DNA from: a virus
Length of the DNA: 64,000 bases
Strand: one strand, 5' to 3'
Virus record (IMG/VR): IMGVR_UViG_3300042923_001106
Location: 32,001-96,000 of that record
The notes under the pieces were generated by a model, which had not been told where the DNA came from, made no database searches, and was given only the letters and a program-made list of their open reading frames with translations. Positions within the stretch are counted from its first letter, which is position 1; each line of letters begins with the position of its first letter. Positions 14,866 through 57,563 of the stretch are shown piece after piece. The position numbers and the translations under genes are program-made.

Positions 14866-15126
14866 ATGACTTATGAAGAAGCCAAAGCACACAAACTAAT
14901 ATTAGAGAAAAAGAATAATACTGATTCTAGCGCGCTGCAATTCTTCGAAAGAAACGCTATGGGATTAATACCGGATCATGTTAGAGAAACGCCAGAATGG
15001 AAAAGTGCTAAAAAGGCTTTTGATAGTTCTTTTGCCGAACTAAGAAACTTTAACGGATGGTTTGTTAAAATGTTTAAAAAAGAAATTTCTGCCGATAGAA
15101 ATTATAAACGATACGTGAGCAAATAA
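14866..15126 (+). CDS. Hypothetical protein
   Basis: 86 aa; stop codon lies inside the 18-bp motif. Confidence 0.75.
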   Translation: MTYEEAKAHKLILEKKNNTDSSALQFFERNAMGLIPDHVRETPEWKSAKKAFDSSFAELRNFNGWFVKMFKKEISADRNYKRYVSK

Positions 15127-15156
15127 AATTTTAATTTTATCATCCAAAATAAAGGA

Positions 15157-15411
15157 GTGTTTACCATTTCGCTATCATACAAAATCAAATTGTTGTCACA
15201 AGAAGAAAAAAGTAAATTTATTAGCATGTTAGATAAATGTTTAAAACTCCAATCTTTTTGGGTTAAATGTTTACTTGATACTAATAAAACAAATGAACAA
15301 TGTGACTTTGCATTAAATAAATTATATTCAATAGAGCAAGAGTTCAGAAACCGATTTAATTATTTGGGTTTGGATAGTTTCAGATTAAACGATAATAAAC
15401 TGTGCCTATAA
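15157..15411 (+). CDS. Hypothetical protein
   Basis: 84 aa; stop codon lies inside the motif. Confidence 0.65.
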   Translation: MFTISLSYKIKLLSQEEKSKFISMLDKCLKLQSFWVKCLLDTNKTNEQCDFALNKLYSIEQEFRNRFNYLGLDSFRLNDNKLCL

Positions 15412-15435
15412 AATGTTACTTTTATTCCTTAAAGG

Positions 15436-15462
15436 ATCGGCAGCCATGCCGGTTTTTGTTTG
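15436..15462 (+). terminator. Intrinsic terminator
   Basis: ATCGGCA-GCCA-TGCCGGT followed by TTTTGTTT. Confidence 0.65.
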
Positions 15463-15605
15463 TGTCTAAGCGTCTATATTCGCTTTATCATTGCTTATCC
15501 AGAATTTAAGTATATCCCTATGATTGAACCTAGAAACGTCTTACATTGGGTTTGTGGCGTTCTCAGCTCATATAAAATAAACATAAACAATAGTAAATAA
15601 AACAT

Positions 15606-15634
15606 TTGTTTATCTATTCTTAGTATGATAATAT
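15606..15634 (+). promoter_or_regulatory. SigA-type promoter
   Basis: TTGTTT-17-TATAAT with TG extension; upstream AAATAAAACAT. Confidence 0.7.
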
Positions 15635-15677
15635 TAATTTTAGGGATTCTATTCGCCCTAACATTAAATAAAATGGA

Positions 15678-16328
15678 GTGGTTTTTATTAAAAAGTGTTC
15701 TGATTGTAATAAAGAAAAACCTTTAAATGAGTATTATTTCAACTTTATTAAAAAGAAAAATGGGGAAGTTAAAATTTCGTATCATCCCAGATGTAGAGCG
15801 TGTTCGGTAATTCGTAATTCTGAATACCGAATAAAAAATGACAACAGAGAGAAAAGATTGGTGACACAAAAGCAATATAATAAACGTGAAGAAACTAAAG
15901 AATATCAAAATAAAATGAGGAGAGATGGATATAGAAAAGAATATTTAAGCGAGTATAGGAAAAGTAATCCTAATAAAATTAAAGAATATAATAAGAAGTA
16001 CTCAAACAAAAAGCATAAAATCACTATGAAAGAATGGGATGCCTGTCGTTTATATTTTGACTATAGGTGTGCATATTGCGGCAAAACTTGGGAGCAGAAT
16101 AAAAAAGAAACAAGAAAAGATTTACATCAAGAACATGCATATGATGACGGTGCGAATGATCTAAGTAATTGTATTCCATCATGTCAAAGTTGCAACAGTT
16201 CAAAACGTGAAAATGATTATATAGAGTGGTATTCGATTAATAACCCTTTGTTTAAGCAGGAAAGAATAGAGAAAATAGATAAATGGTTAATTGAGGAATA
16301 TAAGAGATATATTGAATTCATCCAATAA
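15678..16328 (+). CDS. HNH endonuclease with N-terminal Zn finger
   Basis: CSDC...CRAC at the N-terminus; CAYCG...EH...GANDLSNCIPSCQSCNSSK. Confidence 0.85.
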   Translation: MVFIKKCSDCNKEKPLNEYYFNFIKKKNGEVKISYHPRCRACSVIRNSEYRIKNDNREKRLVTQKQYNKREETKEYQNKMRRDGYRKEYLSEYRKSNPNKIKEYNKKYSNKKHKITMKEWDACRLYFDYRCAYCGKTWEQNKKETRKDLHQEHAYDDGANDLSNCIPSCQSCNSSKRENDYIEWYSINNPLFKQERIEKIDKWLIEEYKRYIEFIQ

Positions 16329-16385
16329 ATTACTGTTTTCATTCACCTATTTAAACTATAATCACAGTAAAGGAGTGAGTACATT

Positions 16386-16604
16386 ATGAATCAAATCACG
16401 AGTTTTTTAATCTATACGCAATACGGATTAGTTAATATCGTACATTCTCTAGAGGAATTGCAGCAGATTGAAAAAATAAATTGGATAAAGGTCGAGATAT
16501 GGAAATTTGGAACACGTCAAAATGTTATCGAAAAATGGAACGGCTACGATAAACTAATGGAATATGCAATCTTTTATTTCAAATTGATTCAGCCTAACAA
16601 ATGA
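16386..16604 (+). CDS. Hypothetical protein
   Basis: 72 aa; stop codon lies in the motif. Confidence 0.65.
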   Translation: MNQITSFLIYTQYGLVNIVHSLEELQQIEKINWIKVEIWKFGTRQNVIEKWNGYDKLMEYAIFYFKLIQPNK

Positions 16605-16638
16605 AAACTGGATTTTATCAATATGAATAAAATAAATG

Positions 16639-16990: not shown

Positions 16991-19792
16991 ATGGAGGCGT
17001 TCCAAATGCACTATATTTACAAACGGGAAGCAAAGGTAATGATTGCTCATGCACTCGAAAAAAACGGATGGAAAGTTTACGGCTATCACGAAGACCAATC
17101 CGACAGCATGACCGACTATTATCACCCGGCCTCGTGGGATGGAATCGCTACAAAGAACGGTCATACACTCGTTATTGATAATTCCAATACATACTATTCC
17201 GGTTATGAAGTAAAGAAATATAACTATTCTGCACGTAAAGCTGTTGTAAATAACAATAACAAGATTGAAAAACTTCGTGCACTCGCTAATGATGAAGGAG
17301 CGACAGAAGGAGAAAAGGCGGCAGCACGTGAAGGAATCGAGCGCCTAACAGGTAAAGAAGCAAATGACGAACCTACATGGACAGTCATCGGCACTTACCC
17401 AACGTTTGCCCACGGTAATCCGGGTAAATGTTCATGGCACATAGAAAAAGACGGTCAAATATTGGCTAAAGGAACCGGCGTGTTTGCTTGCAATGAGTAT
17501 GATTGGGAGGACAAGACAAAAACAGCAGCAGAACAGAAACAGGAAAAAGTTACAGATATTATTGCTCGATTTGAAAAGGTATTAGGGGATTCTGATGCAC
17601 TGCAAGCCGAAGTAATTAAAGTTGAAAAGAAAATTATTAAACATGTAGAAATTGAAAAGACAAGTGTAACAGAAAGTGAAATTACCGAATGTTTTACTTT
17701 TATTATGAAGATTGATTACACGGGAGGTAATTGGAAGGGCAATAAATGGCAGATGGTTAGAAGATATGACAGCGAGAAAAGCGGAGCGAACTTTATATTT
17801 CAGCGCTTAGGTAAGCGCGGCAAGCCTGTTAATGGTGATTGGTGGTTAAGTGTTGAAAAACTTAATAAGATTCTTTCCAAAGGACACATTGCAATTGTAG
17901 AAATGCAAGAGGTTACAGAATACGAAGAAAAGACCGTATTTAAGAAAACTGGACGCAAGCAGCCTCAAGCAAACTTTGACAATGACGCTTTACCGGGAGA
18001 TGTTGAGGAGGAAACAACAGAAGAAACTACACAGGAGTCCGCACAAGCAAAGAAACAAACTGTAAAGCATGAAACAGTATCCGACAACGATCAAGCGACT
18101 AAAAAGCAACTATGGGCGCTACACTGTGCAACAAAGTTAAACACGACTAACCTTTTTATTACAAAAACTAAAGCGTCCGAGTTAATCAGCAAATCGAAAG
18201 CCGGTACAGATATAACGGACGAAGTGAAAGCATTATTAGGTATTGTAGACGCTCCAGAAGTGAAAGAGGAGTCGATAAAAGTAAATGCACAAGAGAGTCA
18301 ACAGAACGACGAAGATCCTGCAGATTGGATCTTAGACTATGCCACAAGTATTATAATGGATGATAATACGGATTCGGTTAAGAAACCGGAAACGGAGGAA
18401 GAAAAAGCAGATTTTAGAAACAAAATAATTGAGTATGTGAAGTACAAAGGAGATTCTGTTACCCAATCTCTTATCAATCATTTTATCTCATTAGGTTCTG
18501 GCGTAACCATCTTGTTAATTGTAGAGGCTTTGCAATCATTGAACGGTTCCCATAACAGCATAGACGAATTAAAGCAGGATGATTATACATTCAATATCGA
18601 TTCGTCATATCTGTACCACGATATACATTTCAAAGCATGGAACATGGAAATAGAACAAATTGAGCCGTATTTGAATGTTCGGGAAATACCATTTTACATT
18701 GCTGGTGATAAGTTTATATGTAAAGGTTTGACTATTGAACAAGTACAATTTATCGAAGGTTTGAACGCATCCAATCAGGCGATATTGTTTTATGATGATA
18801 AATACAACGAAAAGCCCAATAACAGCACCAGAACAGAAGAGCTTGAGAATCAGAATGAAAACACAATTTTATCATCCGATAACATTATATATCATAACTT
18901 TACCAGCAACCAAACCAATAAAGAGGAGACTGAAAACGAATATATGATTGACGATGACTTTTTAAGCAAATTTGATAATGTCGAAGTAACAAATGAGTCA
19001 AAGATTGCCGCTGATGACTTGGAATTCTGTAAGGAACAAGAAGACATTTATAAAAAACTTATTTCAACGTATAACAGTTTTAGTAGTCAATTGCAGGACA
19101 TTTCAAAATTAACTAAATCCATTAGTGAAAATTATACTTATACTAATAATGGATATACGCATAGACACGATACAGCATACTCTAGCAGCTTTTCACAAAG
19201 CGATATTAATGAAAAAATTAATAAAATGAAAGATCGCTTTATTAGCACAATCTGCTATTACTTTGAAAGAAAATACAATATAACAATTCAAGAAGAGAAA
19301 ATACAGAAAAAATATAAAGAATCCGTAACACTAGAAAACATTTTAGATGAAATACATATACAGTTAGAAGGATTCAATTTCACTGAGAAAGCAGAAAAAG
19401 AAATCAAGGACAAATCAAAAGAAATTGTAAGAAATAGTGATAAAATTACAATTAAAAACAACAAATTAATAATTGATGCTTGGTTTTCTCGCCTTGATTC
19501 AATTTGGAAAGAGTATAGAACTAACGGAGAAAGACTTACCAATATTTTTAATGCTCTCCAGCACTTCGAAAATGGGCAAATAAAAGGCAATGAGGAACTA
19601 ACTAAGAAATATATTGGCTATGATAACGAACGCAGCCAGTCAAACTATGAACGTTATGAACCGACAACATTAAGTAAAGTTGCTTCGATCAAAATTTTGA
19701 AAAATGGAAAACTTGAAATTGAATTTAAATCAAATCAACAGGCTACACAATTTGCAAAGGTTTATTGCGGATACAATCAAAAATCAGCATAA
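16991..19792 (+). CDS. Large multi-domain (polyvalent-like) phage protein
   Basis: 933 aa with acidic low-complexity linkers; immediately upstream of the MTase-helicase fusion. Confidence 0.7.
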   Translation: MEAFQMHYIYKREAKVMIAHALEKNGWKVYGYHEDQSDSMTDYYHPASWDGIATKNGHTLVIDNSNTYYSGYEVKKYNYSARKAVVNNNNKIEKLRALANDEGATEGEKAAAREGIERLTGKEANDEPTWTVIGTYPTFAHGNPGKCSWHIEKDGQILAKGTGVFACNEYDWEDKTKTAAEQKQEKVTDIIARFEKVLGDSDALQAEVIKVEKKIIKHVEIEKTSVTESEITECFTFIMKIDYTGGNWKGNKWQMVRRYDSEKSGANFIFQRLGKRGKPVNGDWWLSVEKLNKILSKGHIAIVEMQEVTEYEEKTVFKKTGRKQPQANFDNDALPGDVEEETTEETTQESAQAKKQTVKHETVSDNDQATKKQLWALHCATKLNTTNLFITKTKASELISKSKAGTDITDEVKALLGIVDAPEVKEESIKVNAQESQQNDEDPADWILDYATSIIMDDNTDSVKKPETEEEKADFRNKIIEYVKYKGDSVTQSLINHFISLGSGVTILLIVEALQSLNGSHNSIDELKQDDYTFNIDSSYLYHDIHFKAWNMEIEQIEPYLNVREIPFYIAGDKFICKGLTIEQVQFIEGLNASNQAILFYDDKYNEKPNNSTRTEELENQNENTILSSDNIIYHNFTSNQTNKEETENEYMIDDDFLSKFDNVEVTNESKIAADDLEFCKEQEDIYKKLISTYNSFSSQLQDISKLTKSISENYTYTNNGYTHRHDTAYSSSFSQSDINEKINKMKDRFISTICYYFERKYNITIQEEKIQKKYKESVTLENILDEIHIQLEGFNFTEKAEKEIKDKSKEIVRNSDKITIKNNKLIIDAWFSRLDSIWKEYRTNGERLTNIFNALQHFENGQIKGNEELTKKYIGYDNERSQSNYERYEPTTLSKVASIKILKNGKLEIEFKSNQQATQFAKVYCGYNQKSA

Positions 19793-19852: not shown

Positions 19853-22800
19853 ATGTATCAGATATCTAATACGGTCATACCACAAAATAAACGCGAGACG
19901 CTAAACAACAAAATTTTGCATCTGATCGAGAATAACCTAACTCAAAAATATAACGTGACTCCCAGTGATGTCTACAACGGCTATACGGGTTTCGGTGGTT
20001 TGCATGGTCTGAACTACAACGATTTCAATTCATATCATGCATTCAGTGAAGCGAAAAAACAAATCGAACTAGGGGCATTCTATACGCCTCATCATGTCTG
20101 CAAATTTCTTATAGAATGCTTGAAACCTTCTAGCCACGATCTAATAACAGACATGACATGTGGAATCGGAAACTTTTTTAACTGGCTTCCGAATCATTCT
20201 AATGTATATGGAAATGAAATTGACATTCGCGCTTACAAGGTGGCAAAATATCTTTACCCAAATATCAACATAACAGCGGATGACATTCGAAGCTGGTCAC
20301 CTAGCGTTTCGCTCGATTTGGTTATCGGTAATCCCCCATATAATCTAAAATTTAAAGTAGGCAAAGACGAATACCTTTCACAACTATACTACTGTCTAAA
20401 GTCTTATGACGTTCTCAAGCCTTCTGGACTTCTCGCTTTAATCCTTCCAGCATCATTCCTAGCAGATGATTTTAGCGACTCAGGCATGATCAAAACAATC
20501 AACGATAAATTTAACTTTATATATCAGGCCGAATTACCTTCTAATGTGTTCAAGTCTGTATCTGTAGAAAATTATCGTACCAAAATTATGTTCTTTCAAA
20601 AGAAAAGCGAACAAATAGCAGCCGATAAACCATATTCCACAACTTTACCTATAACAGCCATTGATCAAAATAGCAGCGATTTTATTTATAATACATATAT
20701 CAAGCCAGTTATCGAACAAAAAGAAAAAGTTAAGCATAAATTGTTTTTTGAGCAATTACATAGTAACAGTGGTGACGTAGAATTTCAGGAGAAAGTAAAA
20801 AAGTATCTCTTTGATATCAAGCGCAATAAATATGTTAAAAATTACTATGCCAAAGCTACTGAGTACGTGAATAGATATCACACGCAGAAACAACCTGAAG
20901 GAATGAAGTGGGATGAGTGGGAAAAGATCAGAATCAAAAAAGGAATGGTATTGTCATATCTTAAGAGAATCATCAAGAATCAACATAACAATGAACGAGA
21001 TGAGATACGGCTAATTAAAACAAATTTTTCAATCAAACTCAAGGGATACTCTCAGAAAAATAAAATATATCTATCCAAGTTTACCGGAACAAAAGAAATA
21101 TCATTCAATGATATGATCCTTAATGGCTCCTATCCATTTGAAGATGAAACATATAAATTTTTATATAACAGCAAACGTAAAAAGTTTCTAGTGCAATCAA
21201 AACCATTTAAGCAGATTAATGAAAATTCTAATATCAAATCATGGTTAGACAATTTCAGCCTGTACAATCAGGAAAAGAAAGAAACAATTCACCTAAAGGA
21301 TTTTCAAAAAGAGGATTTACAGAAGATCCTCCAGAAAGACAAAGCACTATTGGCTTGGAATGTCGGCCTCGGTAAAACAGAAGCGGGAATCACATGGATG
21401 TCATACATCAACCAGCATAAACATGTTAAGAATACATTCATTGTTTCATCTAGTATTTCAATTAAAATGACATGGACTCAACGGCTATCGAACTATGGCA
21501 TTAACTTTAAAAAAATAGAGTCACTAAAGGATATTAAAACTTTAACAAAAGGCGAGATTGTGCTAATCTCCTTTAGTATGCTTGTTAAGTACCAGAAGCA
21601 CTTAAAACATTACATCAAGAAGCAAGGAAGAAAACTAGCATTGATTCTCGATGAAAGTCACCGCTGTATCTATCCAAACACAAAGACAACGAAAGCAGCC
21701 TTATCTGTATTTCAACGTGTACCGTATAAATTATTAGCTTCTGGAACGCCAACGAAAAACAATGCTAACGAATTGTATTTACAATTCATGATCTTGTATG
21801 GAAGTAGCATCAATTTCTTATGTGAGTGTGAATATATATCTGTAGAAGACAAGAAAACCGGAGAATGGAAAGAGGTTCAGAATAAGTACTACATGAAGCC
21901 ATTCCCACAATATAATCAATCATTGTTTTCTGCTTGCTTCTCGCCAAAAAAAGCATCAGTTTTTGGAATTGAAAAAGGCAACCAAAATATTTTAAACTCG
22001 GATAAGCTGATTAAACTAATTGAAAAAACAATTATAGTGCGTAGTATGTTCGAAGTGTTAAACAGAGATATGGTCGAGTTTAAGACTCATCGTATAGAAC
22101 AGAACGTGAACGAAAAAGAAGTGTATCGGCTAATCATGGAGGAGTTTCATTCTATGGTTAGGAATTACTATGGATCGACTGGAAACCACAGAAAAGATAC
22201 TATGTTGCGGATCATCCAGCAAATTATGCTTCTTCAAAAAGCCGTAAGTATCCCACATAAACTAAAAGAGTACAACGGATACAAAGAGCCGAATAAATAC
22301 AAGAAAATTGTAAATATAGTAAACACTGCTAAGAACGAAAAAGTAGCATTAGGTGTAACGTTTATTGATTCGGCTACTTACTACTATCACAAGTTAAGAA
22401 GCGAGTTTCCAGATAGAAGGCTGTTCCAAATCCTTGGTGAAACACCATTCAAAAAACGCCAAGAGACTATTCAAGAGTTCGAGTCAACTACAAATGGCAT
22501 CCTTGTTTCGTCCCAACAATCACTCTCCGAGAGCGTCAATATCCCATCCTGTGACGTAGTAATATGCGAAGGTCTTCAATATAACATAGCCAACATTATG
22601 CAGTATGTGGGACGATTTACGCGCTTAAACAGCGAGAATAAGACGGTTATTCACTTTGTAACATATATAAACTCATTAGAACAGAATATTCTAGCTCTAT
22701 TAATGGCAAAGCAACGCATAAATGAATTTATAAAACAATGTGAGTACAAAGAAGATGCTGTGATATTTGATGAATTTGGAATCAGTTTGGATATTTTCAA

Positions 22801-22873
22801 CAACATCATCACAAAAGAAAAAGACGAAAACGGTCTGACAAAATTGAAATGGGGAGAGCAGTCAATTGTCTAA
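19853..22873 (+). CDS. N6-adenine methyltransferase-SNF2 helicase fusion (DarB-like)
   Basis: 1006 aa; GAFYTP, DMTCGIG, GNPPY (MTase motifs); NVGLGKT, LILDESH, ASGTP, GRFTR (SF2 helicase motifs). Confidence 0.85.
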   Translation: MYQISNTVIPQNKRETLNNKILHLIENNLTQKYNVTPSDVYNGYTGFGGLHGLNYNDFNSYHAFSEAKKQIELGAFYTPHHVCKFLIECLKPSSHDLITDMTCGIGNFFNWLPNHSNVYGNEIDIRAYKVAKYLYPNINITADDIRSWSPSVSLDLVIGNPPYNLKFKVGKDEYLSQLYYCLKSYDVLKPSGLLALILPASFLADDFSDSGMIKTINDKFNFIYQAELPSNVFKSVSVENYRTKIMFFQKKSEQIAADKPYSTTLPITAIDQNSSDFIYNTYIKPVIEQKEKVKHKLFFEQLHSNSGDVEFQEKVKKYLFDIKRNKYVKNYYAKATEYVNRYHTQKQPEGMKWDEWEKIRIKKGMVLSYLKRIIKNQHNNERDEIRLIKTNFSIKLKGYSQKNKIYLSKFTGTKEISFNDMILNGSYPFEDETYKFLYNSKRKKFLVQSKPFKQINENSNIKSWLDNFSLYNQEKKETIHLKDFQKEDLQKILQKDKALLAWNVGLGKTEAGITWMSYINQHKHVKNTFIVSSSISIKMTWTQRLSNYGINFKKIESLKDIKTLTKGEIVLISFSMLVKYQKHLKHYIKKQGRKLALILDESHRCIYPNTKTTKAALSVFQRVPYKLLASGTPTKNNANELYLQFMILYGSSINFLCECEYISVEDKKTGEWKEVQNKYYMKPFPQYNQSLFSACFSPKKASVFGIEKGNQNILNSDKLIKLIEKTIIVRSMFEVLNRDMVEFKTHRIEQNVNEKEVYRLIMEEFHSMVRNYYGSTGNHRKDTMLRIIQQIMLLQKAVSIPHKLKEYNGYKEPNKYKKIVNIVNTAKNEKVALGVTFIDSATYYYHKLRSEFPDRRLFQILGETPFKKRQETIQEFESTTNGILVSSQQSLSESVNIPSCDVVICEGLQYNIANIMQYVGRFTRLNSENKTVIHFVTYINSLEQNILALLMAKQRINEFIKQCEYKEDAVIFDEFGISLDIFNNIITKEKDENGLTKLKWGEQSIV

Positions 22874-23109
22874 GGGAGAATCGAATATTCTCCCTAAAAT
22901 AAAACTTGATTTTTATAAAGTAAAAGTATATAAATAAAATTAACAAGTAAACCAATTGCAGAAATTTTAAGGGAGGAATACAAAAATGTTCAAAAGCGGA
23001 AAAAGGATTAACGGCAAGTTGTATGTGCGAACCCATAAGGGAAATCTAATTGAATTATCGCTGCTAATTATATAAGTAAAAACATAATATAAAAGGGGTT
23101 TTGTTTATA

Positions 23110-24161: not shown

Positions 24162-24192
24162 TGCTTTCATCGTCACTTAGGAGCGAACCACT

Positions 24193-44930: not shown

Positions 44931-44947
44931 TGATTATTCGCTCCTTT

Positions 44948-48193: not shown

Positions 48194-48224
48194 AAGAAAG
48201 AACTGTTTTATCTGGGAGGATGAA

Positions 48225-48918: not shown

Positions 48919-48976
48919 TTAATGGATCGAGGCTATGAAAACTGACTTTTATCAGTTGGCAAGGAGGTATTTTTAA

Positions 48977-49195: not shown

Positions 49196-49508
49196 AAACA
49201 TTATAGGTTGTCGGGTTGTAATCAATTTTTCAATCAATCATAACAAGATTGAAAGGTGGGCTAGTCTGAACAAACTTTTCATATTCGCATTCTCATCTGC
49301 TATAGGATCAATCGTAATGATAATACTAAATCTAATTTTCTACGGTAACACGCTGGCAACGGGTATATTAGCAGCATCAACAGCGCTAAATAGTGCAATG
49401 CTTTGGACTTTTCATAGAGAAGAAACTGTCGATGCGCTGAAGAGAATATTTTGGAGAAAATAAAACTTGCTCTTATAGAAATTCTAAGTTAAAGGGGATG
49501 TTCTTAAA

Positions 49509-49952
49509 GTGAATAGTTATCTCGAAAGATACATTGAAAATCTTACGGGTAGAACTTTTTTCAAAAGCGTAGTGCAAATGGAAGATAAGCTTATTATTTT
49601 CTTTTATAACTCATACCAAGAGTTTCGGGAAGACAAAAACACTACTCAGATCACTGAGGAAGATTATCAGGAGTACTTTACACAGAACACCATTGAAAAA
49701 ATCTTGGTAGGTGAACCGGCGAGGATTATGAGGGAGTTTCCCTTTATTGATTCAGTAGAGATTAAAATGCCAAAATATGCAACCGAAATCAAAAGGGACC
49801 TACTGAATGAGTTTCTGGGTTTTCGAATTGAACAAACAAGTGTTTTTGATGGTACTTGGAGAAGTCAATTTTCAGATGTGTACATTTATAATAAAACCAA
49901 GCGGAAGCAATTTATTACCGAGTTCGTTAATATCGATAAAGAAGATCAATAA
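49509..49952 (+). CDS. Hypothetical protein
   Basis: 147-aa ORF. Confidence 0.7.
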   Translation: MNSYLERYIENLTGRTFFKSVVQMEDKLIIFFYNSYQEFREDKNTTQITEEDYQEYFTQNTIEKILVGEPARIMREFPFIDSVEIKMPKYATEIKRDLLNEFLGFRIEQTSVFDGTWRSQFSDVYIYNKTKRKQFITEFVNIDKEDQ

Positions 49953-49984
49953 AAGTTCCACTTTTATCGGACGAATGGAGGGTA

Positions 49985-50272
49985 TTGAAATTGTCCACAT
50001 CATTAGTTGTTCTTCTAGTAATTTTCATTATCGTTATCTTTATTTTCGGAAAATCGAATAAGCGGCGTTTTGGACGTAGGGGATATACAAAGGGCTACAA
50101 TAGAAATAGTTATGATGAAACAAGACAACAAAGAGAACAAGAAAGGACCATCAGATATTTGGAAAGGCAGCAAGAGAGAGAAGAAAGATATTCAAAGAGG
50201 CATGGCCAAAGTTATAATTTTCGGAACAATAAGTCTAAATTTGGTCAAACAAACAAGAGCAGATTTAAATAA
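49985..50272 (+). CDS. Small N-terminally anchored membrane protein
   Basis: N-terminal TM helix plus basic tail; stop codon lies in the motif. Confidence 0.65.
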   Translation: MKLSTSLVVLLVIFIIVIFIFGKSNKRRFGRRGYTKGYNRNSYDETRQQREQERTIRYLERQQEREERYSKRHGQSYNFRNNKSKFGQTNKSRFK

Positions 50273-50302
50273 AAGGTCAATTTCATGTGATGGGGTGATA
50301 AG

Positions 50303-50590
50303 ATGAAGCAATCTGACTATAATCGAGCAGCAAGAAAAATTGCCAGAGCGAATGCTGCTTTATGGGATGCTATTGGTCTAATTAACGAAGCATTATCAGA
50401 TCCAGTTATCAGTAAACTCCTTGAGGAACATGATAATGACAAACAAAAACTTTTTGAGAAGTTAGCTACTGCTTATGAAAAGATCAATAAGAAGTATGAT
50501 GGTTTTATAGATGCTGGAATGCATGGTAGAGATATTGATGATTTTGATAATTTTACAACCAAGTTTGCGGAAGTGTTGGAAACCGAATAA
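50303..50590 (+). CDS. Hypothetical protein
   Basis: 95 aa, bounded by exact motifs. Confidence 0.7.
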   Translation: MKQSDYNRAARKIARANAALWDAIGLINEALSDPVISKLLEEHDNDKQKLFEKLATAYEKINKKYDGFIDAGMHGRDIDDFDNFTTKFAEVLETE

Positions 50591-50639
50591 AATGTCAGTT
50601 TCATTTTTTTAAGTAACAGTAAATTAAAGGAGTAGGTTT

Positions 50640-50909
50640 ATGAAACAGACAGTAGCTTTAACCGTATTGTTGGGAATTCTCTCATTAATTATTATCGGAT
50701 GCTCTACCACACAACAGACAAAACAATTTATAGAAGTTCGTGTCAATAAGGATATGGTAACTCTTAACATCGATCATATAGTAAGTATTCAACCTAACGG
50801 CGATAATGGAGCAGTTATACTAATGGATACGTCAAATGGCATGAATGGCGGACACTTGAATATATCTGAAAGTTACGATGTAATTATTAAACGATTATCC
50901 AAACAGTAA
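50640..50909 (+). CDS. Putative lipoprotein
   Basis: Signal peptide ending in LIIIGC. Confidence 0.65.
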   Translation: MKQTVALTVLLGILSLIIIGCSTTQQTKQFIEVRVNKDMVTLNIDHIVSIQPNGDNGAVILMDTSNGMNGGHLNISESYDVIIKRLSKQ

Positions 50910-50955
50910 GATGAAGTAAATAAAAAATCCATTTCATTAGGTGAGAGGGGAAAAG

Positions 50956-51429
50956 ATGAATACCAGACAGCGTTTGTTTACTACCCAATATAGGGAACTT
51001 TTGGATTGTGAGTGGAAAATTATCTTCGATCCAGTTAATTTTGAAGCGAAGATTGTTAATGAAAACGGTAAAGAAATAGATGGCGTTCCACTGAGTCTAA
51101 TGTTGGGCGAAATCGACGATTACGGCAAAAGAAAGCATGAGGAAAAGAGTGATAAGATCCGCAAACAACCACTAGATGAGTTCACGAAAAAGAGATTAGA
51201 GATAGAGGATTATGTCTTAATCAAGGATGAAACGGATAGGATTGGTAGAAGGGTTTTTGAAGTCTACCATGACCAGAATGATATTTTAACGTTAGATTGT
51301 TTTTCGGTTTCAAAATCTAATAACCTCGTTTATCAGGAGTTTACTGCTCATCTGCTTGTAGATGAGGTTGAAAAAATATTACCAACATTGAATGAATTCG
51401 TTCGGAAGAAAATGAGATCTAAAGAATAA
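50956..51429 (+). CDS. Hypothetical protein
   Basis: About 157-aa ORF. Confidence 0.7.
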   Translation: MNTRQRLFTTQYRELLDCEWKIIFDPVNFEAKIVNENGKEIDGVPLSLMLGEIDDYGKRKHEEKSDKIRKQPLDEFTKKRLEIEDYVLIKDETDRIGRRVFEVYHDQNDILTLDCFSVSKSNNLVYQEFTAHLLVDEVEKILPTLNEFVRKKMRSKE

Positions 51430-51481
51430 TATAGATTATGAAAAGTTCATTTTATAATCTCTTAATTGGAGGCGTTGTTGA

Positions 51482-51886
51482 ATGGAACTGGATACTAAAC
51501 AAAGAGTCCTACTTGCTCTTTATACAGAATATCAAAAAGATTTGCCAGAAATGAGAAGTATCAAACCAGACGTATTAGAGTTGGAACCAGATGTATTTCA
51601 TATTGCTATTATGAAACTAGAAACTGAGGGGTATATTACTGATACAACTCCAATAAGGACGTTGGGCATGAGACATCCTGCTTATCGAATTGATAGCGTA
51701 AAATTAACTAGAGACGGAATTGAATATGTAGAATCAAAATTGAATATTGATCCAACATCAAGTGGCAATGAAAAGGCAAGAGGTGTTTGGAGAAAAGTTG
51801 GTGAATGGGGATTGGAACAGTTTAAAGACGTTATTGCGAAAATAGCAGCAGAGGCGATTAAAGGGCAGTTCGATACTAAATCCTAA
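51482..51886 (+). CDS. YjcQ-like winged-helix protein
   Basis: VLLALYTEYQKD...AIMKLETEGYI...VKLTRDGIEYVE. Confidence 0.6.
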   Translation: MELDTKQRVLLALYTEYQKDLPEMRSIKPDVLELEPDVFHIAIMKLETEGYITDTTPIRTLGMRHPAYRIDSVKLTRDGIEYVESKLNIDPTSSGNEKARGVWRKVGEWGLEQFKDVIAKIAAEAIKGQFDTKS

Positions 51887-51902
51887 CTAGGAGATACAAT
51901 CA

Positions 51903-52373
51903 ATGAAATACACCTATGATTACTTTAGCAGAAATCGTGAGATTACACTAAGAAAATTATTAAATATTGAAGGTTCATATTCATCCATTTCAATCCGCGA
52001 ATTTTATGGAGAAGGTAAAAACCCAAATGAAAATCGCGCTATAAACTCTCTAGATCGAGGATTGTATATAATACAAAAGGGCAATTCCAGTGCTTCTGTT
52101 GATGATCTATTGAATTGTAACTTTAGTGATATTTTAAAAATAAGGAATGCTGGTAAGGGCTCTCATATAATTATTTTGAATGGAATTCTCGATTATTTTA
52201 AACTTGGGAAAATTATCGATGAACCAGAATTAATACGGTCGTACAAATGTGAAATAGATAAATTGATCCAGAGTTGTGATAATGACTCGTTAAAAGAAAT
52301 TATTTATTTACTTTTTGAAGAGCTGTCAATTATTGAAGCAGAAAAAGCATTAAGAAAAATAAAAGACAAGTAA
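51903..52373 (+). CDS. Protein with RNAP alpha-CTD-like segment
   Basis: RAINSLDRG...SVDDLLNCNFSDILKIRNAGKGSHIII. Confidence 0.5.
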   Translation: MKYTYDYFSRNREITLRKLLNIEGSYSSISIREFYGEGKNPNENRAINSLDRGLYIIQKGNSSASVDDLLNCNFSDILKIRNAGKGSHIIILNGILDYFKLGKIIDEPELIRSYKCEIDKLIQSCDNDSLKEIIYLLFEELSIIEAEKALRKIKDK

Positions 52374-52415
52374 TGAAAATACTATTTTATTTCTTTCTAT
52401 AGAAAGGAATTTTAA

Positions 52416-53018
52416 ATGAAGAGAATTAGTTTCAAAACGGGGTCAATAATTGGGTCTATATTATTGCTTTCTGCTTGTTTAGTTTCAGGTATATGGGCCT
52501 TCCAGAGTAGAAATGAAATCAAACAACTAAAAGTGTCTTTGCAGAGTAAGGAGAATGCTTTAGTACAATCTGAGGAGAAAATTATAAATATTCAGAACCA
52601 AAATCTAGAGATCGCTGAGTTATTTGAGTTTCTTTCAGAAACCCAAACCACAATGAATCTTGGGAAAAAGATGGTTAGTGATATCAATTCGCAAAAAGTT
52701 GGTGAAATCGATTTTAATAAGTACACTTATCCCACAGAGAAACGAATAGAGCTAGTCGATGCTTTTGTTAACTACCAAAAGAAGTACACAAAAGATCGAT
52801 TAGAAAAAATCTATATACAAATCGGGCAAAAAGAAGAGGAAGTATCTAAACATCAAAAAATGATTGAAGATTATCTTAACTTTGCAGTAAATTTCAGGGA
52901 CCGAAAGAATGAACCTTTAGGAATCTTGCGGCTTAATGATCTTTTAGCAGCTCTACAAGTAGAAAAAGCTATCTCAGCAACTCAAGAAAAAATTCATGGT
53001 CTACTGCAAAATAAGTAA
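52416..53018 (+). CDS. Membrane-anchored coiled-coil protein
   Basis: N-terminal TM helix; 200 aa. Confidence 0.65.
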   Translation: MKRISFKTGSIIGSILLLSACLVSGIWAFQSRNEIKQLKVSLQSKENALVQSEEKIINIQNQNLEIAELFEFLSETQTTMNLGKKMVSDINSQKVGEIDFNKYTYPTEKRIELVDAFVNYQKKYTKDRLEKIYIQIGQKEEEVSKHQKMIEDYLNFAVNFRDRKNEPLGILRLNDLLAALQVEKAISATQEKIHGLLQNK

Positions 53019-53057
53019 ATGAAAAGACTCTTTCATGGGGAAGTAGGAGGTGCATAA

Positions 53058-53318
53058 ATGAGACTTACAGATAAAACGGGTGCTTGGGATAGATTAAAAA
53101 GATGGGAAGGAAAGTATAAAAAGTTTGAAGTATCAATTAGTCAGGGCAGTAGTGATCCACTTAGAGGCATTGTAGACTGCTATTACTTCGTGGTAATTTG
53201 CAACGAACCTGATTTAAGACACAATTCTTTGTGGACTAAGGATAAATACAGTTCAAAAGAAGAGGCTGAACAAGCAGCAATTAACTGGATTGATGAAAAA
53301 CTGAAGGCAATAAAATAA
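53058..53318 (+). CDS. Hypothetical protein
   Basis: 86-aa ORF with RBS. Confidence 0.65.
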   Translation: MRLTDKTGAWDRLKRWEGKYKKFEVSISQGSSDPLRGIVDCYYFVVICNEPDLRHNSLWTKDKYSSKEEAEQAAINWIDEKLKAIK

Positions 53319-53585
53319 CGGTGTTGTAGAAAGGGAGAGGGGAAAATGTATAAGGTTGGAGATTGGGTTAAAACATCTCAGACATCAAGCGACTTTATAA
53401 GAATAATTGAACTCAGCGAATCAGACTCTAAAGGTGGGACACCTGTACGGGTATCATAGCAAATACTCTAAGAGAAGGAAACCAGCGGGGTTCAATACAA
53501 ATATAAATGAGAACAAGTCAGAAATGTACAAAGGGTAGAAGCGAATAATAAAATAACTTTCATAGGGAAATAGGAGGCATTAAAT

Positions 53586-54407
53586 TTGAGCAAAGCTAAA
53601 AAGAAAATCGATGTAAACTCAGAAGAATTTAAAGTGCAGCAACACAGGGATAATCTTATACGTATTGAGGAACGATTGATTCACATTCCAGAGCCAACTG
53701 TTACTTTTGAGATTGGAGAAAGTGTAAGGGTGGGTAGTCTTGAAGATGAGATTGTTTTTTCAATTCTTCATGGTGGCAAAATTCTTGAAATCGATTATAC
53801 CTCTGTTAAGTCAAATTACGGAAATCCAATTCGCGAGGAGCATCAAAAGGGGTATTGGACATGGACAGAGACAAGAAAGAAAAATGACAATGTTAATTCT
53901 CTAATTGAAAACGACGATATCCGTTTGAACTACTCTCAAACCCATCTACGTGGATTGCTAACTAAAGTCTATCATTTTGGCGTAGATTTTAATCCTGATT
54001 ATCAGCGTGATTACGTTTGGGATGAGAGCGACAAAGTTAAGTTAATTGATGCAATATACAAAAATGTAGACATTGGGAAGTTCGCCTTTGTTCGGGTATC
54101 CGATAGAAAGTGGGAAGATAACGGGCATATCTACAGTTATGAAATTCTAGACGGTAAGCAGCGACTCAGAGCAATTCTCGATTATTATGAAAATCGTTTC
54201 CCGTACAAAGGATTTTATTTCAATGACTTATCACGCAGGGATCAAAATCATATGATGGAATACAGTGTTAATGTGGCCGAAGTATCCGAGCTAACTTACG
54301 AGCAAACGTTACGATACTTCCTGATGCTCAACACTAGTGGACGGATTATGAGTGAAGAACATCTAGACAAGGTTCGTCAATTGCTTGATCAAGAGACGAT
54401 GAAATAA
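53586..54407 (+). CDS. DUF262 (ParB/GmrS-like) domain protein
   Basis: FNPDYQRDYVW...LIDAI...EILDGKQRLRAI...FLMLNTSG. Confidence 0.85.
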   Translation: MSKAKKKIDVNSEEFKVQQHRDNLIRIEERLIHIPEPTVTFEIGESVRVGSLEDEIVFSILHGGKILEIDYTSVKSNYGNPIREEHQKGYWTWTETRKKNDNVNSLIENDDIRLNYSQTHLRGLLTKVYHFGVDFNPDYQRDYVWDESDKVKLIDAIYKNVDIGKFAFVRVSDRKWEDNGHIYSYEILDGKQRLRAILDYYENRFPYKGFYFNDLSRRDQNHMMEYSVNVAEVSELTYEQTLRYFLMLNTSGRIMSEEHLDKVRQLLDQETMK

Positions 54408-54434
54408 CGGTTTCATTGAGAGGTAGGGTTAATA

Positions 54435-54638
54435 ATGATTGAGTTCAAGAGAACATCTGTACACGAAGTTGGAGGCTGTAATTATTGTGATCAAGGCAAA
54501 CTGAGCTTCGGTGGACATAATTTAGTGTATCCATATGATGAGGTATTTGAGATTCGCGGCAATAGAACGAGAACAACAATATGCGCGGACTGCTTAGAAG
54601 AGTTAGTTAGTAAGAATCCGTTAAAAATGAATTTATGA
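54435..54638 (+). CDS. Zn-finger hypothetical protein
   Basis: CNYC...CADC. Confidence 0.65.
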   Translation: MIEFKRTSVHEVGGCNYCDQGKLSFGGHNLVYPYDEVFEIRGNRTRTTICADCLEELVSKNPLKMNL

Positions 54639-54651
54639 GGAGTTACAATAT

Positions 54652-54855
54652 ATGATTTGGATGTACACAATAGTAAAAAGAGTAGAAGATAGATTTGGTA
54701 ATAAGTGGACAATTGATGGTAAAATATATGAGCCGTTCACAGATAGGAGTTTGAGTTATGTATTGAACCAGTACGGAGCAGAAGGTTGGGAATTGGTTAC
54801 TAAGGAAGACGGAAATACTTATATTTTCAAGAAGTTGCATCAAGATGATGAATGA
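54652..54855 (+). CDS. Hypothetical protein
   Basis: LNQYGAEGWELV, a DUF4177-like motif. Confidence 0.6.
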   Translation: MIWMYTIVKRVEDRFGNKWTIDGKIYEPFTDRSLSYVLNQYGAEGWELVTKEDGNTYIFKKLHQDDE

Positions 54856-54885
54856 CAAATAAACGATGATTTTATGGGATGAGAG

Positions 54886-55200
54886 GTGAGTAATGTGGAG
54901 TATGGAGTTTTCAATGGAAGAGAATTGATTCAAACATTTGAAAATGATGAGGAAGGTAAGGAGATCGCACTCAATTTATTTAAGGAATCAGGAGAAGTAT
55001 ATTTTTGTAGAAGATTACACTTTGATGAGTTAACAGAAGATTCTAAAATTCGCAGACTAAAAAATCGACTTGATGAGTTAAACGAATTTCTGGATCGAGC
55101 CAAAGAATCTGGTAGAACATATAGGTCGGACACATCAATAAATGCCGATGAACTTGAATGGCTGCTTAACTTAGCACAAAAACAATTACAGATGAAATGA
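54886..55200 (+). CDS. Hypothetical protein
   Basis: 104-aa ORF. Confidence 0.65.
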   Translation: MSNVEYGVFNGRELIQTFENDEEGKEIALNLFKESGEVYFCRRLHFDELTEDSKIRRLKNRLDELNEFLDRAKESGRTYRSDTSINADELEWLLNLAQKQLQMK

Positions 55201-55222
55201 CGACTTCAAAGGAAGTGAGAAA

Positions 55223-55768
55223 TTGCAAATGCTGCTACGTAAATCATTTCATTTTGAGAAGCAGAAGTATATGTTTACAGTGGAAACAGATGGTGTCTTT
55301 TTAGTGTTGAATTGTTACAAGGGCGGAAGTGAGAAAAACGAAGCGGTTCTAATTGAACGATTTTCTCCAATAGAGAAGAAAATTATGAATGTTATTGATG
55401 ATACGATTGGTCACTCAATGGTTACTGATTTACGAAAAGACACAAAGAGAATGAGTGATTATGTCAGAAAATACTATAAAGTTCCTTTCCCAGAAGTAAA
55501 TGAACTCTTGGTTCTGGATGAAGAGATAGAAAAAAATGGGTATTCGGTTTACGAAGATATTTTGGTGTTGGAGTACTTGGAAAATAAAGAAATACCATTT
55601 GTAACTTTTGAGTATGAAGGTAAAAAGTACGTGTTTACTTCAAAAAATAAACTGGATGAATTTCAAGAAGTATTAATGAAAGAAGTTACAAAAAAGAAAA
55701 ACGAAATTAAGCAGATCCAAGATTTAGAGATGGACATTTTTTATAAGTCAAAGCGCATCTTCGGATAG
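55223..55768 (+). CDS. Hypothetical protein
   Basis: 181-aa ORF. Confidence 0.7.
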   Translation: MQMLLRKSFHFEKQKYMFTVETDGVFLVLNCYKGGSEKNEAVLIERFSPIEKKIMNVIDDTIGHSMVTDLRKDTKRMSDYVRKYYKVPFPEVNELLVLDEEIEKNGYSVYEDILVLEYLENKEIPFVTFEYEGKKYVFTSKNKLDEFQEVLMKEVTKKKNEIKQIQDLEMDIFYKSKRIFG

Positions 55769-55832
55769 AGAGATAAAGATTTTTGAGCAATTCCGATGAG
55801 AACATGCTTTTATCTGATAAAAGGTTAGGAAG

Positions 55833-56276
55833 GTGTGGCGAAAAGTGAAAACTAAAGATTACATTAAGATGCTGCAAGTAGGAAAAAATCCAGTTGTTCG
55901 TTTCACTAAATTGATTGATACATTTGAATGCGAAGTGGACGAAGGAATGCTGGCCAGAGCGGTATCTGTGAGGGACGAGGGAGACGGAACAACAAAAGTT
56001 GTATTCGAAGTAAAAGAGTTTGAATCGACAAATATTCCATTTATGAAACTCGACTATTTTGATAAAGATGGAGATCCGACCTTGAGATGGATCGACACAA
56101 ACTTTTATCCCAAAGACGGTATTGAATATTTTTATATTGAAACTGATGGTGAAACACCCTTTGAAATTATTGATGACAACGTTGCTTTGAATGATTATAG
56201 AAACAGCGGATCAAGTCTAAGCTATATTCAATGGCTAGAGGAGCAGTATTTGAAATTATCAAAGAAGCATATCTAA
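55833..56276 (+). CDS. Hypothetical protein
   Basis: 147-aa ORF. Confidence 0.7.
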   Translation: MWRKVKTKDYIKMLQVGKNPVVRFTKLIDTFECEVDEGMLARAVSVRDEGDGTTKVVFEVKEFESTNIPFMKLDYFDKDGDPTLRWIDTNFYPKDGIEYFYIETDGETPFEIIDDNVALNDYRNSGSSLSYIQWLEEQYLKLSKKHI

Positions 56277-56301
56277 ACCTTTTACCAAGGATGAGAGCGG
56301 T

Positions 56302-56568
56302 ATGACTATAGATAAATGTACAATTGAAGGCTGCACTGATCCTGTTAAAGCCAAAGGCTTGTGTAGCATGCACCATCAAAGGTTAAGACGTACCGGAAGT
56401 GTAGAAGCAAAAAAACCAAAAGAAACACAAAGGATCGCCAATAGAAGCTCGAACAAGTCGTTCCTGTTAAAAAAATGTAATGCATATGGATGTAATGAAT
56501 ACGCCTCAAGCATGGGACTCTGTAAAAAGCACTTGGAAGAATGGGATTGCGGGATTAAAATACGATAG
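56302..56568 (+). CDS. Protein with two Cx4C...CxxH zinc-finger repeats
   Basis: CTIEGC...GLCSMH; CNAYGC...GLCKKH. Confidence 0.7.
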   Translation: MTIDKCTIEGCTDPVKAKGLCSMHHQRLRRTGSVEAKKPKETQRIANRSSNKSFLLKKCNAYGCNEYASSMGLCKKHLEEWDCGIKIR

Positions 56569-56657
56569 CTGATTTGTAAATGATTGTTGATCATTTTATG
56601 AGTGTTTATGAAGTGTGACAGTGAAAGGTAATTTTATTTGAGGCGAGAATAACTAAC

Positions 56658-57110
56658 ATGTCTGTCAATGTGATTCAAGGTGATTTACTCAATGCTCCAG
56701 AAAACATAATTGGACATCAGGTTAATTGTCAGGCCGTAATGGGATCAGGTGTAGCTAGAGCTTTGAGGGACAAGTATTCCGATTTATACTCAGCATACAC
56801 AGAGTTTTGTACGGGAAACTCACCAAAAGAATTATTAGGACAGTTGCAAATTGTACCAGTCGCAAAAGACAAATATGTGGCTAATCTATTTGGTCAGCTG
56901 AATTTTGGACGATCTAACATTACATACACTAATTACGACGCTCTGAAAGAGGCATTACTTGCATTAAAAGAATGCGCCAAAGAAAATGGATATACTGTTG
57001 CGCTTCCATATAATATCGGCTGCGGATTGGCCAACGGTAGATGGGCAATTGTTGAAAAGATACTCGAAGATGTTTTTTCGGACTATGATGTGGTATTGTA
57101 CAAAATTTAA
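56658..57110 (+). CDS. Macro domain (ADP-ribose processing) protein
   Basis: IQGDLL...IGHQVNCQAVMGSGVARAL...VANLFGQ...ALPYNIGCGLANGRW. Confidence 0.85.
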   Translation: MSVNVIQGDLLNAPENIIGHQVNCQAVMGSGVARALRDKYSDLYSAYTEFCTGNSPKELLGQLQIVPVAKDKYVANLFGQLNFGRSNITYTNYDALKEALLALKECAKENGYTVALPYNIGCGLANGRWAIVEKILEDVFSDYDVVLYKI

Positions 57111-57127
57111 TAATACTACACAATTTC

Positions 57128-57526
57128 ATGGAGGACAGAAGGATGAATCCAAAAGAAATTGGTAAGAGAATAGTGTATGTTCTACAGCTTGAAAATGATT
57201 ATTTTTATGTTGGACAAACGCCATATTTAGTTAAAAGATTGGATGAACATAAAAGGAACAAAGGATCTGTCTGGACTAAGATTCATAAGTACGAATACCT
57301 GATTGAAACTTATGATGCGGGGTCATGTACATCGAAAGATGCAGAGGCCCTTGAGAATGAAGTAGTCATAAAGTATATGAAAGACAAAGGATGGAGGAGA
57401 GTTAGGGGAGGTAATTTAAGTGCTATTGATGAGAAGGAAATATTGAGAGTACTATTGAAATTTCCGAAAAAGTATAACCTAGATCAAGAATTTATAAATA
57501 TTCTAACTGCCAGTCAATCTGAATAA
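57128..57526 (+). CDS. GIY-YIG nuclease
   Basis: IVYVLQLENDYFYVGQT...RLDEH...LENEV...VRGG. Confidence 0.8.
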   Translation: MEDRRMNPKEIGKRIVYVLQLENDYFYVGQTPYLVKRLDEHKRNKGSVWTKIHKYEYLIETYDAGSCTSKDAEALENEVVIKYMKDKGWRRVRGGNLSAIDEKEILRVLLKFPKKYNLDQEFINILTASQSE

Positions 57527-57563
57527 AACAACAATTTCAATTGATTGTAAAGGAGTATGAAAT

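Follow-up and report, generated by a model that had tools for sequence, protein, structure and literature searches.

Interrupted palindromes with position-specific centres at the gene junctions of an SPbeta-like phage: candidate sites for cassette exchange

Heterospecific lox and FRT sites have symmetric arms around an asymmetric centre, on which compatibility as well as direction depends, and sites with unlike centres do not cross. The gene of a recombinase can stand beside its own site, as cre does with the adjoining loxP of phage P1 and xerS with difSL. Here we describe an 18-bp interrupted palindrome, ATRAAA-N6-TTTYAT, that recurs at the gene junctions of a phage genome in a window of 64,000 nucleotides (the whole stretch of DNA analysed, bases 32001-96000 of the IMG/VR record IMGVR_UViG_3300042923_001106; the record is 183,208 bp long and complete per CheckV). 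From the sequence comparisons given below, we favour, with some reserve, a reading in which a phage Xer-like tyrosine recombinase uses the copies as barcoded crossover sites to exchange cassettes in register. The wider picture, a natural recombinase-mediated cassette exchange with 60-120 heterospecific sites per genome and a dedicated YomM or YopP recombinase, has about an even chance in our estimate. No paper describing the element was found in our literature searches.

Cassette exchange with lox or FRT resembles the present case in the recombinase gene with an adjoining site and in the in-register swap between two different sites. However, it is a laboratory design with 13-8-13 sites, whereas the exchange here would be natural and would use sites of a 6-6-6 format of about 18-20 bp with roughly 60-120 different centres per genome, for which we infer a dependence of exchange on centre identity. 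Integron attC sites are imperfect palindromes of 57-141 bp that act as a folded single strand with paired R''/L'' and L'/R' boxes. Integron cassettes are likewise promoter-poor units of open reading frames (ORFs), and their stop codon can fall in the recombination site, but the site here is rigid, only 18 bp long, and has centres bound to position.

Many inverted-arm sites with 6-bp centres also bound the accessory modules of Acinetobacter plasmids that move from replicon to replicon, the XerC/XerD-dependent pdif/dif modules (PMC6449649, PMC13141974). The pdif sites have distinct 11-bp XerC and XerD arms, alternate in orientation and use the host XerC/XerD; in contrast, the sites described here have short symmetric arms of 6-8 bp and co-oriented, unique, position-conserved centres on a phage replicon, and their likely enzyme would be phage-encoded rather than host Xer. 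The stoperators of Cluster A mycobacteriophages are similar in being dozens of protein-binding words in short intergenic gaps (PMC6550527, PMC9283540), but they are asymmetric, transcription-oriented 13-bp words without a variable core, bound by an immunity repressor monomer, whereas the present element is a palindrome with a variable centre. In the PeSL cassettes of T4-type phages, a short intergenic repeat flanks small accessory ORFs and marks the joints at which close relatives differ by an insertion, deletion or replacement (PMC2839356); the PeSL contains a promoter and a true stem-loop and acts via homology, while our element has neither promoter nor covariation, and its centres are position-specific. 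Finally, SPBRE, the operator of MrpR/YopR/SroF, also recurs in this phage family and has a binder of recombinase fold (PMC10516654), but it is non-palindromic and occurs in about 10 copies at promoters, unlike the many-copy palindrome here.

Abundance, geometry and stop-codon overlap of the palindrome

The window carries an MrpR/YopR/SroF-like repressor gene (60993-61991, plus strand), which is a marker of SPbeta-like phages and adjoins a DndB-like gene. The record also encodes YopP-like and YomM-like tyrosine recombinases and a large serine recombinase, so that all the features of SPbeta-like membership are present: the MrpR/YopR repressor with its DndB/ParB-like YopQ neighbour, YopP, YomM and the large serine integrase. 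The format agrees as well, with a genome of at least about 130 kb and a single long rightward gene block, in which about 250 small genes occupy the record between about 40 kb and 166 kb (the gene calls behind these and the following counts are home-made for this analysis). By its repressor, DndB-like neighbour and recombinase set, the record is therefore that of an SPbeta-like phage. The named relatives of its MrpR come from Paenibacillus. We compared the record (G000) with the IMG/VR relatives G001, G003 and G004 and with its closest relative L007, whose MrpR is 95% identical. Of about 306 proteins of the record, only 26 are common to all four Paenibacillus-type phages (G000, G001, G003 and G004). 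A megablast search with 10 kb of the window against the phage collection gave no match, and a P. chitinolyticus locus (L008) was rejected as a relative, as it holds only a DndB/MrpR remnant in a chromosomal context.

Scored with at most one mismatch, the motif has 64 matches in the window, 41 of them exact; dinucleotide shuffles gave 6.33 +/- 2.67, and none of 100 reached 64. The whole record contains 124 matches, of which 115 lie within the rightward gene block. The motif is enriched in every SPbeta-like genome tested, with exact copies outnumbering those of the control in G001 (64 versus 0), G003 (40 versus 1), G004 (30 versus 0), G005 (27 versus 0), Geobacillus virus E3 (24 versus 0), phi3T (16 versus 2), Goe14 (15 versus 2) and Alicyclobacillus phage KKP_3916 (12 versus 0).

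The spacing of the arms is rigid: 70 exact copies have 6 nt between them, and any other spacing yields at most four. Inverted arms, ATRAAA and TTTYAT, around a fixed 6-nt centre are the format of a tyrosine-recombinase core site, and weak, symmetric extensions of the arms are seen at positions 0/19 and 7/12. Positions 3 and 16 show no covariation (A-C 24, A-T 19, G-T 15, G-C 12); if folded, a third of the copies would contain an A-C mismatch, and the inner positions are not complementary. Since positions 3 and 16 do not covary and the spacing is rigid, the copies fit double-stranded DNA sites for a dimeric protein rather than RNA or DNA hairpins, and the RNA hairpin was ruled out by the lack of covariation.

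The earlier note on this DNA had claimed that the left arm supplies the stop codon of the upstream gene and that the palindrome sits just before the next ribosome-binding site (RBS). All 20 stop codons that it listed do occupy motif positions 2-4; with five further ones (genes ending at 16328, 25821, which is a doubtful 42-aa ORF, 26974, 38510 and 58310), the window has 25 such stops. The five stops that it placed in the spacer are also there, together with three more (ends 24161, 27186 and 35734), which makes eight within the centre. In the whole record, the stop falls at positions 2-4 in 43 of 124 copies, and no other register exceeds 7. The AT-rich context of stop codons does not explain the overlap, and the bias survives a control for it: 53 of the 241 plus-strand genes of the block end in A-TRA-AA, and TTTYAT follows after exactly 6 nt in 29 of these, where 0.1-0.4 would be expected; no other spacing accounts for more than 1. 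Past the motif, the next start codon comes after a median of 20 nt (interquartile range 15-26), so that nothing more than the RBS fits in between.

The degenerate R gives a stop codon either way, as had been noted, but a tie between this degeneracy and stop use was not borne out. Copies with and without a stop at TRA have A and G at R in similar ratios, and TAA and TGA are used in the same proportion at motif stops (28:15) as in the other genes (121:63); the degeneracy is therefore a property of the site. Stop overlap is found in 17-35% of copies per genome (17-25% in four relatives), and Goe14, a phage of B. subtilis, shows it too. It seems to result from compaction and not to be what the site is for: because junctions of 30-50 nt must hold the A-TRA-AA arm, about a third of the upstream genes would end in the motif. 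This would account for the many small genes of SPbeta-like phages that are annotated as ending in an A-TRA-AA word.

Sigma-70-like promoters are not enriched in the array (71 versus 88 expected, and 72 versus 75.5 expected), and the few strong promoter-like sites are located in long gaps. The proposal that each unit is a minimal promoterless cassette comparable to those of integrons can be retained in part: the units appear to be exchangeable combinations of an RBS with one or a few ORFs in an array without enriched promoter-like sites. Its integron analogy failed, as a 6-6-6 palindrome without covariation is not an attC of 57-141 bp, and the centre is tied to position.

Shared centres and exchange joints

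The 6-nt centres differ from site to site within a genome and recur at matching positions between genomes. Counted in the same orientation and against a reverse-complement control, the record has 13 centres in common with L007 (versus 0), 25 with G001 (versus 1), 15 with G003 (versus 5) and 8 with G004 (versus 1); all other genome pairs also exceed their control, for example G003 and G004 with 31 versus 0. The shared centres are collinear in 13 of 13 cases for L007 and in 23 of 25 for G001, which was never reached in 5000 shuffles. The excess of sharing exists at Hamming distance 0 only, with 38 pairs at distance 1 against 46 in the control. At sites with shared centres, the degenerate R/Y positions of the arms are randomised to chance level, and identity over the 60 nt to each side is about 30%, the random level. 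At about ten syntenic junctions of L007, the full 18-mer including the centre is identical and both flanks are unrelated. Corresponding slots contain genes without mutual similarity (Smith-Waterman z about 0), which vary in length and in how many there are; to the left of the copy at 58307-58324, for instance, four phages have genes of 58, 80, 217 and 188 aa, and the genes of the three relatives are unlike that of the window. Homologous genes lie between different centres in 12 cases and between the same centres in 6, so the centre goes with the position rather than with the cargo. Judged by these counts, the site scaffold is kept as well as the gene content, each relative having 8-25 centres in common with the record despite the mere 26 proteins kept in all three IMG/VR relatives.

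Three classes of centres are absent within genomes. Among 352 sites in G000, G001, G003 and G004, there are no duplicate centres within a genome (9.4 expected), no palindromic centres (8.2 expected) and no reverse-complement pairs within a genome (8.3 expected); 25.8 cases are expected in total, and all three classes were zero in none of 3000 column shuffles. Such rules would be the outcome of selection if identical centres recombine efficiently, with deletion expected between direct repeats, inversion between inverted ones and a loss of direction at symmetric ones. The all-or-none sharing, the single orientation and the rules within genomes provide strong but indirect support for a putative need of matching centres in the two partners, with direction set by their asymmetry.

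Natural variants were examined in the contigs of three soil metagenomes (X1-X3) aligned on window positions 43001-63000; of the words in a 10-kb stretch, 37% and 20% occur in two soil metagenomes besides the source. Along these contigs, pieces of 95-99% identity alternate with replaced blocks. Of the 26 breakpoints, fewer than one would be expected within 5 nt of a motif edge, but 14 are found there, and one more lies at 7 nt; three further breakpoints fall at decayed copies, one of them with a 7-nt centre. Three replacements span exactly a single motif-to-motif slot, and one motif copy survives alone, as a 23-nt island between two replaced blocks. A minor variant with the same joints is present in the source sample at a depth of about 25-32, compared with about 250.

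The breakpoints at individual copies are given here as the end or restart of homology to the metagenome variants unless L007 is named. At a decayed copy with three mismatches (43506-43523), homology stops at 43517, the boundary of centre and right arm. Homology restarts at 44388, 1 nt ahead of the exact copy 44389-44406; at 46221, past the one-mismatch copy 46203-46220 (stop at positions 2-4); and at 47170 before the exact copy 47171-47188. It stops at 46438 near the exact copy 46417-46434 (stop 46426-46428 in the centre, which recurs in G001), and on the final bases, 47416 and 48687, of the exact copies 47399-47416 and 48670-48687, the latter with a stop at 48678-48680 in the centre. In the variant copy with a 7-nt centre (49950-49969), homology stops within the centre at 49958, and it restarts at 50267 before the exact copy 50269-50286 (stop at positions 2-4, centre in G001). 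Two exact copies bound a cassette common to L007: the homology to L007 begins 1 nt before the left one (52373-52390) and stops about 6 nt after the right one (53019-53036). The exact copy 54399-54416, with a stop in its centre, has an identical centre in L007 with both flanks unrelated, and homology stops at 54418. Three one-mismatch copies follow: 55796-55813 (centre in L007; homology restarts at 55801), 57523-57540 (stop at positions 2-4; centre in L007 and G001; breakpoints at 57516 and 57539) and 57877-57894 (centre in L007, G001, G003 and G004; restart at 57876). At the exact copy 58102-58119, which has a stop in its centre and shares the centre with L007, G001 and G003, homology stops at 58123. 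The exact copy 58307-58324 lies within the 23-nt island, 58306-58328, that is conserved alone in X2 and X3, and the decayed copy 58801-58818 (two mismatches) has the centre of the L007 site 7311, with homology restarting at 58818.

Comparisons with other genomes point in the same direction. The homology blocks of L007 with the window begin and stop at motif copies, and the homology between Goe14 and SPBc2, phi3T, SPbetaL1, SPbetaL4, BUCT082 and BUCT083 begins or stops at them. In Goe14, homology with SPbetaL1, SPbetaL4 and BUCT082 sets in with base 1 or 2 of the copy at 88674, and a different upstream gene of SPbetaL4 uses the TRA of this copy as its stop; homology with SPBc2, Goe12, Goe13 and SPbetaL8 runs from 1-8 nt ahead of the one-mismatch copy at 88242. 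Within Goe14 90001-110000, nine or ten of the 24 block ends lie within 7 nt of nine copies, where about 0.35 would be expected. Among distant phages, 12 of 200 left ends of blastn blocks are within 5 nt of a motif; because block ends of low identity are too fuzzy, the metagenome variants are the useful test.

Candidate recombinases and competing explanations

If the copies are crossover sites, each arm of 6-8 bp, the same at every site, would bind one subunit of a dimeric protein, and the 6-bp centre, different at each site, would have to match exactly between partners, like the overlap of lox, FRT or dif. The exchanged cassette would be an RBS with one or a few ORFs, swapped in register between SPbeta-like phages; after exchange, the incoming ORF would gain its stop from the arm, and the next ORF would keep its own RBS. 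The accessory genome could then be regarded as a set of loci whose unrelated 'alleles' swap between co-infecting phages or prophages, without deletions or inversions.

The likeliest enzyme would be a phage Xer-like tyrosine recombinase, with the YomM-like protein as the first and the YopP-like protein as the second candidate. The YomM-like gene lies outside the window at 13680-14663 of the record (PF00589, E 1e-20); among solved structures, XerA and XerD are closest to its product, which has the canonical R, H-x-x-R, H and Y residues. A motif copy (record 13659-13676) stands 3 nt past the stop of this gene, in a region otherwise poor in copies. Such a copy is found 2-19 nt past the YomM-like stop in G000, G001, G003, G004 and Goe14 and at 218-399 nt from the gene in E3, phi3T and SPBc2. 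The YopP-like gene (8338-9378 of the window, plus strand) encodes Phage_integrase and SAM-like domains; its product is 30% identical (E 1e-38) to the YopP of Goe14, is found in all four compared phages, and keeps the R, K, H-x-x-(R/K), H and Y residues in six phages. A sequence search of the PDB with the YopP-like protein gave no match. Both recombinases best match Xer-type structures, with IntI4 marginal (E 0.008). Together with a phage HU-like DNA-binding protein (2409-2681, minus strand; Bac_DNA_binding, E 1e-33; kept in G001, G003 and G004), a possible accessory factor, they are among the 26 proteins common to the four Paenibacillus-type phages. The dif site of B. subtilis agrees with the palindrome at only about 4 of 7 bases per arm, which we did not count in favour of host Xer. 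No role is known for YopP, and the integration of SPbeta depends on the serine recombinase SprA (PMC8612738).

The MrpR/SroF repressor was considered and rejected as the binder of the palindrome, since SPBRE differs from it, is non-palindromic and lies at promoters; SroF binds an asymmetric box of 24-26 bp as a monomer, without a catalytic tyrosine (PMC10516654; bioRxiv 10.1101/2025.11.27.690993). A 15-nt A-rich word with the core ATATGTATA, evidently SPBRE, occurs in Goe14 (L006) at 10715-10729 and in five other places, upstream of promoters including that of aimR.

Several observations weigh against exchange by a phage recombinase between identical centres. Near its YomM-like gene, G005 has only a copy with two mismatches; in three of six phages, the YopP-like protein carries K in place of the second catalytic R; and arms of only 6-8 bp are short for a tyrosine recombinase. 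Cargo also moves between slots, homologous genes being often flanked by different centres, which a strict requirement for identical centres cannot explain. In distant comparisons, block ends at 80% identity or more number 19 at motif junctions and 23 at plain ones (279 versus 457 junctions); motif junctions are thus only mildly favoured, and exchange is not confined to motif sites. The metagenome variants, finally, come from assembled contigs rather than reads, and show the presence of the joints and not their mechanism.

An unlikely alternative is that the copies are primarily sites of a regulatory protein, for example for roadblock or silencing in the manner of stoperators, and that the mosaic joints are a side effect of 18-20 bp of homology, the sole remaining shared word, being used by general or phage single-strand-annealing recombination. 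The many copies in short gaps of long rightward transcription units, directly before RBSs, agree with this, as stoperators are placed alike (PMC6550527, PMC9283540), and motif-free junctions undergo exchange as well. However, it predicts neither the total absence of duplicate, palindromic and reverse-complement centres nor the all-or-none conservation, accompanied by R/Y drift, of a centre that the protein does not read. Moreover, 18 bp is very short for homologous recombination, and the known SPbeta repressor uses a different, asymmetric box (PMC10516654; bioRxiv 10.1101/2025.11.27.690993).

We regard as improbable a phage homing-like, site-specific endonuclease whose breaks, repaired from a co-infecting relative, give conversion tracts. 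Breakpoints at site edges and an interrupted palindrome typical of a dimeric nuclease would suit it, and a GIY-YIG gene does interrupt L007, but position-specific, conserved centres that are never duplicated or palindromic would stay unexplained. Conversion tracts would not halt exactly at the next copy, as the three one-slot replacements do, and no nuclease is conserved together with the motif among the proteins common to the compared phages.

An integron-like system, with an attC-like site at the 3' end of each cassette and an integrase that captures and excises circles, is very improbable. It would account for co-oriented units of RBS and ORF, few promoters and a stop within the repeat, and integron-like elements have been reported in phages (PMC9892861). 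Yet the site is only 18 bp long and shows no hairpin covariation, the centres stay with the position rather than the cargo, and there is no duplicated site such as the insertion of a circle would leave. The recombinases are Xer-like rather than IntI, and no attI/Pc or attI/IntI platform was seen, although no IntI-specific model was run. An intercistronic RNA hairpin or protein signal for termination-reinitiation or mRNA processing, to which we give just as little credence, would fit the fixed placement between stop and RBS, but its stem would be six A-U pairs without covariation and with an A-C mismatch in a third of copies, loops that are site-specific and conserved across phages have no RNA rationale, and the copy beside the YomM-like gene is on the other strand.

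Cassette exchange at barcoded crossover sites, if true, would explain in concrete terms how a large phage family becomes mosaic gene by gene, and would give a role to two orphan tyrosine recombinases, YomM and YopP. It would revive Botstein's 'linker' idea in a modern, site-specific form. It would also provide a means to delimit accessory cargo, including MazF-like toxins, a GmrSD/NsnA-like protein and a DarB-like methylase-helicase, and could supply genome engineering with dozens of short recombination sites that are orthogonal by nature. As SPbeta and phi3T share the pattern, the proposal is testable in B. subtilis.

Remaining copies and neighbouring genes

The remaining copies of the window are given here without strand. 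Those with a stop at positions 2-4 begin with two exact copies whose centres recur in G001: 15123-15140 (stop 15124-15126), followed by an ORF from 15157, and 15408-15425, where this ORF (15157-15411) ends and past which a terminator-like hairpin lies at 15432-15457. Further exact copies of this type are 16601-16618, 25127-25144, 25818-25835 (serving the doubtful 42-aa ORF; next start after 19 nt), 26780-26797 (next start after 15 nt), 30542-30559, 34222-34239 (centre in G003 and, out of order, in G001), 38507-38524 (next start after 12 nt), 39001-39018, 39225-39242, 45860-45877, 47907-47924 (centre in G001) and 50587-50604. With one mismatch, the same stop position is seen at 16325-16342, 26393-26410, 31152-31169 and 43803-43820 (next starts after 43, 19, 19 and 13 nt, respectively), at 26971-26988 (centre in G003 and G004), at 33255-33272 (centre in G003) and at 35238-35255 (centre in G001 and G003, with unrelated cargo on both sides).

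The stop lies in the centre (+5) of the one-mismatch copy 24153-24170 and the exact copy 27178-27195, each followed by a start after 22 nt, and of the one-mismatch copy 35726-35743 (centre in G001 and G003); in the exact copy 29142-29159, the stop is at 29148-29150 in a centre that recurs in G001. Upstream stops precede the exact copies 22899-22916 (29 nt), 23517-23534 (21 nt; next start after 33 nt), 24824-24841 (20 nt; next start after 22 nt), 46762-46779 (8 nt; next start after 23 nt) and 50920-50937 (14 nt; next start after 18 nt), as well as the one-mismatch copies 14834-14851 (5 nt; next start after 14 nt; centre in G001), 26164-26181 (25 nt; next start after 26 nt) and 28777-28794 (8 nt; centre in G001). 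Three exact copies are intergenic, 24516-24533 and 25651-25668 with the next start after 25 and 24 nt and 28065-28082 adjoining minus-strand genes.

The one-mismatch copy 32927-32944 is followed by the best promoter-like site of its region, which begins at 32947. Another, 35012-35029, is the first of six shared centres in a run; it is collinear with G001 55532, and its centre also occurs in G004. Centres are shared by the one-mismatch copies 35546-35563 (G001 and G003), 36157-36174 (G001) and 48194-48211 (G003 and G004), and by the exact copies 36478-36495 and 48935-48952 (both G001), 51438-51455 (L007, G001 and G004, the L007 flanks being unrelated on both sides) and 59425-59442 (G003); the exact copy 58953-58970 is followed by a start after 14 nt. 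Three matches are probably due to chance: 18855-18872, deep within a 928-aa gene (17006-19792) and possibly a relic, and the intragenic one-mismatch matches 19050-19067 and 48258-48275.

The gene at 17006-19792 has a partial homolog of 57% identity in G001 and precedes a gene at 19853-22873 for a DarB-like protein of 1006 aa, in which an N6 methylase is fused to an SNF2/DEAD helicase; the nearest phage match of this protein (44% identical) is from Clostridium phage D-1873. PADLOC named only this methylase-helicase and a GmrSD/NsnA-like protein among the cargo. The latter, encoded at 53586-54407, has a GmrSD_N domain and a PADLOC match to NsnA, which makes a defence or anti-defence nuclease possible; the corresponding slot of L007 holds a 69-aa gene. 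Two MazF/PemK-like toxin genes are found among the genes at 30595-31155, 31759-32244 (minus strand) and 32440-32853; the second is divergent with a gene for a Myb-like DNA-binding protein, and this pair is kept in all four compared phages. An insertion sequence with a DDE transposase (DDE_Tnp_1_2, DUF772) occupies 41081-42652 on the minus strand, past the gene 39285-41054; this block, with 44% G+C inside a phage of 34% G+C, is probably of host origin.

Contigs of X1 and X2 join window position 59751 back to 57485, in reverse order, and in some variants the block from near 57485 follows the DndB/MrpR region, as it does in G001. An Agr-like unit without a neighbouring kinase lies at 62153-63923, directly downstream of the MrpR-like repressor gene; it comprises a membrane protein, AgrB (PF04647), a 41-aa ORF and a LytTR-only protein. 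The unit is kept in L007, AgrB is present in G001, G003 and G004, and the unit may represent a non-arbitrium peptide signal.

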